DNA of 64,000 bases. Source: an uncultured Kiritimatiellota bacterium (GTDB taxonomy: Bacteria; Verrucomicrobiota; Kiritimatiellia; RFP12; DVOR01). Where the stretch lies: NCBI GenBank assembly GCA_944389945.1, contig CALXOF010000005.1:29215-93214 (forward strand), written 5' to 3'. How positions within the stretch are numbered: the stretch's first letter is position 1; each line of letters opens with the position of its first letter. A program made the translations under genes and the position numbers. Positions 25,523 through 26,958 of this stretch are shown one piece after another. The notes under the pieces were generated by a model. That model ran no database searches. It worked only from the letters and a program-made list of their open reading frames with translations, and was not told where the DNA came from.

Positions 25523-26176
25523 ATGCCCCTCCACTGTCCTCCCCTGCACCTATTACTCACCGGTCCTGGTCGCATCGGCGCCGGGCTTGAGCCCCGCCTC
25601 CGCGCAGACGGCCACACCGTCCGCATCCTCACCCGCGCTGACTACGGCGACTTCGCCGACCCCGCTTTCGACCCCCACCCCACCGTCGCCGCCCTCCCCG
25701 CCGACCCCGCGCCCGACGCCATCCTCCACCTCGCCGGCCTCTTCCAAATCGGCCCCGCCGCCGACCCCGACCGCCTCCTCCGCGCCAACGCCCACGGCCC
25801 CATCGCCCTCGCCGAAGCCCTCCACGCCCGCTTCCCGCACGCCCAACACATCCTCTTCCTCGACGCCCGCGTCGCCCACGACGCCGCCGACGACCCCGCG
25901 CCCCTCCGCCCCTACCTCGCCGCCAAGCGCGCCCTCACCGACTGGTTCCGCCGCACCGCCCTCGCCTGGGGCCGCGCCACCGCCACCCGCGTCAACGCCA
26001 TCGCCCCCGGTCCCGTCCTCCCCCCGCCCGACCCCGCCCACAGCGAAAAGGCCGGCGAATGCCTCACCCCCCGCCCCACCCTCGCCGACATCCACGCCTG
26101 CGTCACCCTCCTCCTCTCCGTCCCCTCCCTCACCGGCCAAATCCTCTACCCCGCCGCCGGCCAGAACCTCCTTTGA
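25523..26176 (+). CDS. NAD(P)-binding SDR-family oxidoreductase (divergent)
   Basis: LLLTGPGRIGAG Rossmann motif and YLAAKRAL (YxxxK). Confidence 0.6.
   Translation: MPLHCPPLHLLLTGPGRIGAGLEPRLRADGHTVRILTRADYGDFADPAFDPHPTVAALPADPAPDAILHLAGLFQIGPAADPDRLLRANAHGPIALAEALHARFPHAQHILFLDARVAHDAADDPAPLRPYLAAKRALTDWFRRTALAWGRATATRVNAIAPGPVLPPPDPAHSEKAGECLTPRPTLADIHACVTLLLSVPSLTGQILYPAAGQNLL
26141..26176 (+). repeat. 36-bp direct repeat, left copy (3' end of the SDR gene including its stop codon)
   Basis: ATCCTCTACCCCGCCGCCGGCCAGAACCTCCTTTGA is identical at 26923..26958. Confidence 0.9.
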
Positions 26177-26922
26177 CCCTTGCAACCAATCACGCGTTAT
26201 GCTATACTTTGTGCCGTAATCCACCGGAGTAGTCAAGGCGAAACGGGTCGAGCCGCCCCTGTGGCGGCTCTTTTTTTAAGGGTCCTGCCATGCTCAAGCC
26301 AACCATTGTTATGTCGACGGCTTTAACCTTTACTATGGCCTTCTGAGAAACACCCCTTGGCGCTGGCTTGATTTAGGGGCTTTCGCAGACCGTCTCGCCG
26401 GACGGCAACGAGAAGTCCGCCAAATCCGCTATTTCACCGCTAGAATCAAACCAAATCCAAACGACCCTCATGGAATGGTAAGCCAATCTGCCTATCTTGA
26501 GGCGCTCGCGGGAAAAGAACCCCGCCTCTCCATTGAGGAAGGTTTCTATCTTCTTTCCACCAAAACAATGCCCAATGCAACGCCTCCTCCTCCTTTTGTC
26601 CAAGTCCTCAAGGCGGAAGAAAAAGGAACCGATGTCAATATCGCGTGTGGGATGCTAGCAGATGCTTACGAACGAAAAGCTGAGACATTTATCCTCGTCA
26701 GTGGGGATTCCGATCTCGCCACTCCGGTCAAATGCGTGAGAGCCCTCGGATTTGAAGTCTTGGTCTTCAATCCACAAACACGTGATTGTAAAGCATTGCA
26801 AAGCGTAGCCTCCACCTATACACGCATTTGGAGAACCTTGCCACGTGTTTGTCAGTTACCCAATCCATGCCCAACCATGCACGGCCGTGCCGTACGTAAG
26901 CCTACACATTGGCAAGTCTGCC
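26177..26922 (+). other. 746-bp low-GC (~48%) insertion: promoter-like TGCTATACT (26200..26208), terminator hairpin (26249..26278), NYN-domain gene remnant
   Basis: Bounded by the 36-bp direct repeats. Abrupt GC drop relative to flanks. After the right repeat the sequence resumes with the Family-A module that normally follows gene 3' ends. Confidence 0.75.
26280..26922 (+). pseudogene. NYN-domain (LabA-like) protein gene, disrupted at the 5' end (frameshift or truncation) and truncated at the 3' end
   Basis: The frame reads ..CYVDGFNLYYGL...GTDVNIACGMLADAYERKAETFILVSGDSDLATPVKCVRALGFEVLVF (NYN signature). No in-frame start before the DGFNLYY core. The ATG at 26290 is in the -1 frame. The ORF runs out into the direct repeat and repeat modules. 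Confidence 0.65.
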
Positions 26923-26958
26923 ATCCTCTACCCCGCCGCCGGCCAGAACCTCCTTTGA
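26923..26958 (+). repeat. 36-bp direct repeat, right copy
   Basis: Identical to 26141..26176. Confidence 0.9.

Follow-up and report, generated by a model that had tools for sequence, protein, structure and literature searches.

Type III toxin-antitoxin (TA) systems, which include ToxIN, CptIN and TenpIN as well as AvcID with its non-repeat small RNA antitoxin, are composed of a promoter, a noncoding RNA, an intrinsic terminator and a nuclease or toxin gene, and they are carried by mobile elements in a strain-variable manner. HEC-09 (Hma-embedded candidate 09) is listed in PADLOC and presented, in the passages of its source paper devoted to it, as a single-gene NYN candidate defence system (bioRxiv 10.1101/2024.01.29.577857). 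Integrase-borne islands and their integrase-less derivatives, such as CIME-type elements, e14 or phage 21 in icd and the islands at tRNA 3' ends, duplicate the 3' end of their target gene as direct repeats. Transposase target duplications are typically 2-15 bp long. Here, we analysed a 64-kb stretch of DNA from an uncultured Kiritimatiellota bacterium (the window, by which the whole stretch is meant), in which an SDR-family oxidoreductase gene is followed by an insert that carries a small RNA (sRNA) gene and a HEC-09-type NYN RNase pseudogene between two copies of a 36-bp direct repeat. The best explanation, to which we assign a probability of roughly 0.6, is that of a 782-bp strain-variable sRNA-NYN mini-island which integrated via an attachment-like 36-bp block at the 3' end of the SDR gene.

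With regard to type III TA systems, the order of promoter, RNA, terminator and nuclease gene is the same, as are the carriage by mobile elements and the variability between strains. The window RNA differs in being a single two-hairpin unit devoid of tandem repeats (TRF detected no array in 26177-26289), the protein has an NYN/PIN-like fold instead of the ToxN/AbiQ fold, and the sRNA of NYN loci may be convergent or divergent with its own promoter. The intact allele of the NYN protein matches the HEC-09 model from end to end and shares the NYN fold and the conserved acidic residues, whereas the window gene lies outside any Hma (helicase-methylase-ATPase) system, alone after a housekeeping-type gene, and is a pseudogene. 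Like the integrase-borne islands, the insert leaves the target gene intact, has an empty counterpart in relatives and shows a foreign GC content, and another NYN module (locus L078) is bracketed by a block from the T-loop of tRNA-Thr. Unlike these islands, the window element is shorter than 0.8 kb, has no recombinase and offers no room for arm-type sites, and the repeat sequence of NYN modules changes from locus to locus. The likeness to transposons and integron cassettes consists in a short mobile unit between direct repeats and in a single-gene cassette. The repeat (36 bp here, 17-213 bp elsewhere) is far longer than a transposase target duplication. Terminal inverted repeats and an attC-like imperfect palindrome were looked for at the insert and not found, and the insert contains no transposase open reading frame (ORF).

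The locus itself is ordinary in kind: it is a small, foreign, strain-variable defence-type islet at the 3' end of a gene, and it is decaying. Its value lies in showing a tiny defence-type cassette that comes and goes at a gene end without harming the gene, caught in mid-decay, with two independent inactivations in sister strains and an RNA that is still intact. Less ordinary are the completeness of the RNA-plus-nuclease module and the recurrence of such modules as cassettes that lack a recombinase and lie between copies of adjoining upstream sequence, which in the clearest cases is the 3' end of a gene or tRNA.

A strain-variable insertion at the 3' end of the SDR gene

The features of the locus are the following.

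25523-26176, + strand: SDR-family oxidoreductase gene, the target of the insertion (217 codons; Pfam Epimerase/adh_short_C2)
26141-26176, + strand: left 36-bp repeat (attL-like), the last 11 SDR codons plus TGA, with the SDR frame and stop preserved
26180-26208, + strand: sigma-70-type promoter of the small RNA (TTGCAA, 17-nt spacer, TG-n-TATACT with an extended -10)
26215-26280, + strand: two-hairpin small RNA of about 65 nt (covariance model R1, 28.8 bits, E 1e-7)
26290-26915, + strand: NYN (HEC-09-type) RNase pseudogene, beginning at ATG 26290 and delimited by alignment with the intact L002 allele and with L003
26923-26958, + strand: right 36-bp repeat (attR-like), the displaced original SDR 3' end
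26959-27084, + strand: Family-A dispersed intergenic module (hairpin GGGGCGC-TGAC-GCGCCCC, then a GAGAACG tandem repeat of 4.4 units)

Two copies of the 36-mer ATCCTCTACCCCGCCGCCGGCCAGAACCTCCTTTGA, and no more, are present in the 64-kb window. They lie at 26141-26176 and 26923-26958, each on the + strand, and an identity of 36/36 over such a distance is far above chance expectation. The insert between the two copies (26177-26922) measures 746 bp, or 782 bp together with one block. A preliminary description, made from the window alone, had interpreted this segment as an insertion flanked by 36-bp repeats that duplicate the end of the SDR gene. The repeats proved exact and the insertion reading is supported by the present analysis. 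The same description had put the GC content of the insert at about 48%, which was slightly low: the measured value is 51.6%, with 49-54% in local 200-nt windows. The insert is nonetheless lower in GC than the window (64.3%) and the SDR gene (74.8%).

The right copy is followed by the same sequence that lies 3' of the SDR stop in the empty site of locus L019. This sequence is the Family-A module, also present at that position in L019, and it is the original host DNA downstream of the SDR gene. Its assignment to a dispersed repeat family, already made in the preliminary description, is borne out by at least 10 further related copies in the window and a TRF match at 26978-27008.

The exact SDR protein was found on 13 metagenome contigs with the same neighbours, and the window-type arrangement recurs in independent assemblies from ENA, Logan and NCBI. 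The window neighbours are ThrRS, IF3, the SDR gene, a PEP-CTERM protein, GATase_7 and LpxK, of which the synteny ThrRS-IF3-SDR is kept in L014, L015, L017 and L018. Among the relatives, the site is filled with an intact NYN gene in L002 and L007 (the latter, according to a genome-collection match, an uncultured Kiritimatiellota metagenome-assembled genome), filled with a broken NYN gene in the window and L003, and empty in L018 and L019. In both empty sites there is a single block and the SDR stop directly abuts the downstream sequence, as the preliminary description had proposed to look for. L018 has an SDR protein with 97% identity and the downstream context of L007 and L002, while L019, which covers the 3' part of the SDR gene only (98% DNA identity), continues with the Family-A module of the window. 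Both downstream contexts are thus found in filled and in empty form. The more distant L014 and L015 (SDR 80-83% identical) also have a single block, followed by unrelated genes. A 36-bp duplication existing without the insert, named at the outset as an observation that would speak against an insertion, was not found in any relative examined. The insert is a strain-variable insertion with an empty site in close relatives.

Other events were observed in the SDR gene. In some strains it is split mid-gene by a different, larger insertion (L019, 2913-3983; proteins P0130, P0178 and P0179). P0130 consists of SDR residues 1-115 fused to unrelated sequence, whereas P0178 and P0179 have unrelated N-termini fused to the C-terminal ~50-67 residues of the SDR protein. 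Given this second insertion, the SDR gene looks like a hot spot for foreign DNA.

The NYN gene and its small RNA

The long NYN frame of the window extends from 26280 to 27086 and matches Pfam NYN PF01936 with a score of 52.8 bits, the gathering threshold being 24.2 (E 8e-14; positions 5-142 of the 145 in the profile), in agreement with the domain originally recognised by its motifs. As also noticed from the letters alone, the frame has no in-frame start (none before 26475, and ATG 26290 is off by one base) and runs into the second repeat copy. Alignment with other alleles traces these two anomalies to two lesions. One T has been lost at 26309-26310, where GTTTAT became GTTAT, which throws ATG 26290 out of frame, and the ancestral stop TAA at 26913-26915 has changed to CAA, so that the frame continues through the repeat to 27086. 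Apart from these lesions, the catalytic signature is preserved (YVDGFN, EEKGTDVN, SGDSDL).

Intact copies of the gene, which the preliminary description had suggested seeking, are present in L002 and L007. Each has 208 codons and ends with ...RKPPHW-TAA, 7-10 nt before the right repeat. The L003 gene, with 98% DNA identity, has neither of the window lesions. It carries its own 2-bp insertion and a D-to-N change in the DSD motif and was thus inactivated independently of the window gene. Gene calls of the aberrant 203-aa product encoded by the window allele were found on 16 contigs, and those of intact 208-aa alleles on well over 100. Given this recurrence, the frameshift is real and not an assembly error, a possibility that had initially been envisaged. 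The NYN gene in this genome has been recently inactivated, and the RNA gene is untouched. The initial view of a decayed foreign fragment accordingly needs amending: the segment is foreign and its gene is broken, but the module is compact and complete, and the damage is limited to two point lesions.

The foreign origin is indicated by the low GC content and by the distribution of the homologues. The repaired NYN protein has approximately 1,500 of them, typically of about 205-215 aa and ending in ...KPxxW. Homologues are carried by 428 plasmid records and 57 viral contigs. One homologue is gene 6 of the Mycobacterium prophage prophiGD43A-1, located between the integrase and the immunity repressor. 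The PADLOC HEC-09 model PDLC04163 matches P0001, an intact allele with 95% identity, over positions 5-202 of 203 (E 3.9e-43), and it also matches P0003, P0005 and P0006. The intact allele further matches PHROG 7929, and NCBIfam yielded no model for the NYN protein.

The promoter-like site and the terminator hairpin followed by a T7 run, both pointed out in the preliminary description, were recovered by pattern scans at 26180-26208 and 26250-26277. What had been listed there as two separate signals is, when taken together, a conserved small-RNA gene. In the scan of 26000-27400, this promoter, which begins 3 nt past the left repeat, is the only one of the sigma-70 type. Hairpin P1 of the RNA is CCG-GAGUAGU-CAAG-GCGAAA-CGG. 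Hairpin P2 is the terminator itself at 26250-26270, GAGCCGCC-CCTGT-GGCGGCTC, followed by U7 at 26271-26277. The NYN ATG lies 12 nt past this terminator in the window. As the terminator precedes the NYN gene in such a tandem layout, expression of the nuclease must depend on terminator read-through, as it does in type III TA loci.

Positions 26195-26277 are identical in the window and the L002/L007 allele, and the adjoining coding region differs by 11%. We also observed that window positions 26165-26200 show about 10 differences from L002/L007 in about 32 bp, almost all of them transitions (mostly C/T). These clustered differences extend from the last bases of the left repeat into the -35 region, beside the 83 identical bp that comprise the -10 box and the sRNA, which makes the pattern a mosaic.

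The same succession, in which a -10 box is followed by a short hairpin and then by a GC-rich terminator hairpin with its U-run, was also found before NYN homologues with 43-66% protein identity, and it is obvious by eye in 131 loci. An exact-pattern scan for the RNA core returned nothing in viral contigs or JGI metagenome contigs and only two genome contigs, so that a covariance model was needed to see the family. The structure was tested on a structure-blind MAFFT alignment of 50 sequences, with a two-helix model and 500 shuffles. In this alignment, 82.7% of the cells are paired (63.5% in shuffles), the covariation score is 0.59 (0.24 in shuffles and at most 0.235 with sliding 3' partners), none of the 500 shuffles reaches the observed value, and compensatory changes occur in all 18 pairs of the RNA. 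RNAalifold, applied to the same alignment, returned the terminator helix only, and P1 was specified by hand and then tested.

Model R1, built from the 50-sequence alignment, has one good match in the window, at 26215-26280. It matches 78 of the 80 metagenome NYN loci, together with 45 further places in viral and other loci, and gives no match in four empty-site loci. The RNA also lies, unannotated, beside the NYN gene of prophiGD43A-1 and beside that of a Leptospira interrogans plasmid. Rfam 15 contained no family for the RNA when the window and 26 loci were searched with an E-value limit of 1, lowered to 0.1 for the last 10 loci. A weak second match in the window was observed at 28057-28115 on the + strand (13.2 bits, E 0.034), at the end of the PEP-CTERM gene. 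As its alignment is confined to the terminator half of the model, this match probably reflects an ordinary terminator.

The orientation of the RNA bears on its role. In the window and in most loci, the RNA lies between the promoter and the NYN start, with the terminator 12-25 nt before the ATG, which would suit an RNA that acts solely in cis on the NYN gene, as a 5' leader or attenuator. This interpretation is improbable in view of approximately 20 loci in which the RNA lies on the opposite strand right after the NYN stop, and of approximately five in which it lies upstream and divergent, since in these positions it cannot serve as a 5' leader. About a quarter of the family loci are not tandem. 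In the other loci, too, the RNA has a -10 element ahead of it (TGCTATAMT or similar). This includes the convergent loci, where a -10-like element is present in 11 of the 11 that were read. The convergent and divergent arrangements point to an independent, tightly linked partner gene rather than merely a leader.

The likeliest function is that the RNA restrains the NYN RNase, forming with it a type III-like TA or abortive-infection (Abi) pair. This proposal follows from the near-obligate linkage of the two genes and from the presence of an intact RNA beside two broken nuclease genes. Several points weigh against it. Toxicity of the nuclease and its binding by the RNA would both have to be assumed. 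HEC-09 protected against no phage tested, according to the portion of the work of Payne et al. that concerns it (bioRxiv 10.1101/2024.01.29.577857). Finally, the window's own RNA folds no better than shuffled sequences (z -1.1), its structure being supported by the family alignment. The presence of a partner RNA beside HEC-09 in nearly every locus nevertheless offers a concrete, testable reason for the negative phage result, and the unannotated conserved RNA provides a handle on HEC-09 regulation.

The RNA appears not to have been described before, and its conservation extends over several phyla. The HEC-09 and NYN passages of the same paper mention no partner RNA (bioRxiv 10.1101/2024.01.29.577857). 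Literature searches returned nothing linking NYN to an RNA antitoxin. The sRNA-NYN family was found in Kiritimatiellota, Lentisphaerota, Actinobacteria, Leptospira plasmids and mycobacterial prophages. A bolder proposal has two parts: that the RNA and the HEC-09-type NYN protein form an undescribed, widespread RNA-protein TA/Abi family in which a single structured sRNA, in place of a repeat array, checks a PIN-like nuclease, and that the module of less than 1 kb moves by itself as an integrative cassette, using the borrowed 3' end of its target gene and no recombinase of its own. That both parts hold together is possible but doubtful.

The idea of a guide RNA whose stems would pair with the flanking repeat was dismissed on visual inspection, as only 6-mers are in common. 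Several loci show variant arrangements. L030 has two tandem sRNA-NYN cassettes (RNA matches at 473-545 and 1422-1490) with a 62-bp identical promoter segment common to both, and L109 alone has two adjacent sRNA copies (1351-1414 and 1419-1483) before one NYN gene. In L006 (150-364), from a Lentisphaeraceae metagenome-assembled genome, the similarity covers the sRNA and the first ~30 NYN codons, after which the sequence is unrelated. In L004, a short contig from an apparently related organism, the NYN gene is full and its junction with the downstream membrane-protein gene falls in the middle of the latter; the difference between the two reflects either a rearrangement or a chimeric short contig. 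In L095 (1500-2420), the NYN gene begins 9 nt past the stop of purA with no sRNA in front of it, and a promoter and an sRNA-like two-hairpin element lie downstream on the same strand, as if circularly permuted; this element gives no R1 match at E<=0.01.

Proposed integration through the 36-bp block and competing explanations

The comparison of the window with L007 suggests that the site has been used more than once. Synonymous divergence (dS) between the two is 0.018 for ThrRS, 0.026 for IF3 and 0.041 for the SDR gene, compared with 0.57 for the NYN gene, which has a dN/dS of 0.045. The high NYN value between flanks of low dS indicates two old, selectively maintained alleles that occupy the same site, with the same boundaries, in near-identical hosts. 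Downstream of the right copy, the window and L007 differ completely. As the homology they share on the right side is limited to the 34-36-bp block, the block appears to act as the exchange site. The left copy in L002 and L007 ends with AATCTTTTTTAA (SDR protein ...QNLF), whereas the host form AATCTCCTTTGA (...QNLL) is found in the right copy of L002 and at the empty sites. A left copy brought in by the cassette would be expected to differ in this way.

Bracketing repeats of upstream sequence, ranging from 17 to 213 bp, were found at about 12 of 97 loci. In L078, a 23-bp duplication from the tRNA-Thr T-loop to its 3' end surrounds a 757-bp module (59% GC, with flanks of 71-73%). In L095, the duplication comprises 213 bp of the purA 3' end, is 95% identical and ends at the stop codon. 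The repeats around the modules of L093, L082, L151 and L005 measure 116, 36, 23 and 20 bp, respectively. In the three well-resolved cases, namely the window, L078 and L095, the duplication ends 0-2 nt from the end of the upstream gene or tRNA. This recurrent duplication of upstream sequence around modules lacking a recombinase raises the question of how mini-islands move. A different situation was observed in L093 (30-145 and 949-1064), where the 116-bp duplication is 96.5% identical and the module lies inside an apparent coding region. There, a TAA right at the junction terminates the left copy, the frame of the right copy stays open, and the cassette seems to split the gene.

In the model that we favour, a copy of the SDR 3' end borne by the cassette would recombine with the chromosomal one, which would generate the two 36-bp junctions and keep the SDR gene intact. 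The cassette may integrate as a circle via this borrowed 3'-end block, either with a recombinase acting in trans or by homologous or single-strand-annealing recombination. Precise loss or swap of the cassette could proceed through the same 36-bp block, and this could explain why close strains are empty, intact or broken.

Several observations count against this model. The circular form of the cassette is postulated. No recombinase gene was found in the insert or among the called neighbours, and the 10 size-matched ORFs of the window belong to metabolic or structural families or have no Pfam match, with no recombinase among them. The integrase whose search had been recommended in the preliminary description was thus not encountered in these sets, and integration may have been either site-specific or homology-driven. 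A length of 36 bp is marginal for RecA-type recombination. The variants in the right copy of L007 do not fit a single reciprocal crossover, and gene conversion or extra mutations must be assumed. In addition, a single ancient insertion whose flanking core genes were homogenised later could yield the contrast in dS. Chance could account for two similarities noted at the junctions, one of 17/22 between the left junction and the NYN-internal segment 26419-26440 and the other of 13/16 between the right junction and the start of the NYN gene.

Among the alternatives, the duplication may be a by-product of illegitimate or homology-facilitated insertion rather than a reusable site. It could result from staggered-break repair, from a template switch, or from a donor consisting of the SDR 3' end plus the cassette, with one homologous and one illegitimate crossover. 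Such an origin would be in line with the variable length (17-213 bp) and unrelated sequences of the repeats elsewhere, with the lack of conserved cassette ends, inverted repeats or an attC-like hairpin in our searches, and with the purA copies of L095, which differ by 5% as a donor and recipient pair would. We nevertheless regard it as unlikely. Two cassette alleles that differ by a dS of 0.57 share precisely one site and have identical duplication boundaries, and random breakpoints would not give duplications that end 0-2 nt from a gene or tRNA end in three cases.

Another alternative is that the insert is the remnant of a larger integrative element, a prophage or an integrative and conjugative element with an integrase, that had entered an attachment site in the SDR gene and was reduced to the NYN module by internal deletion. 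NYN homologues do occur in prophages near the integrase or attachment end, as in prophiGD43A-1, and many IMG/VR matches lie at contig ends. Repeats that restore the 3' end of a gene are typical of integrase-borne islands, L078 at tRNA-Thr being an example. However, the end points of such a deletion would have to lie 3 nt away from attL and 7-10 nt away from attR. Deletions of this kind would also have been needed more than once, separately for the 746-bp insert of the window clade, for the 757-bp module of L078 and for several further modules with tight brackets. Given that the insert also contains no trace of other element genes, we consider this scenario rather improbable. Although the source is a metagenome assembly, an artefact, whether a chimeric join or a sequencing frameshift, can practically be dismissed, as the same arrangement is found in the independent ENA, Logan and NCBI assemblies and the broken product on 16 contigs.

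Repeats and paralogues elsewhere in the window

A further Family-A copy, at 31156-31208, starts 1 nt past the stop of the ORF at 29956-31155. The intergenic regions of the window contain tandem arrays with periods of 7, 8 and 9 bp (GGAAGCTT, TAGGACATA, CTCCTGAAT, GAGAACG and ACACGAAGG), combined with GC-rich hairpins. Such arrays were located at 25172-25197, 25311-25334, 25395-25427, 25479-25510, 26978-27008 and 27112-27139, and the types of array and hairpin module seen in the window recur in the relatives L007, L018 and L019.

Three paralogous ORFs of about 525 aa were found at 3198-4775 (+), 49563-51137 (+) and 56961-58535 (-), in stretches of the window with a lower GC content. Their N-termini are alike (MExxIAQ..DFRE/IMRE...YVDKT), and the first of them matches Pfam AAA-ATPase_like and PDDEXK_9.

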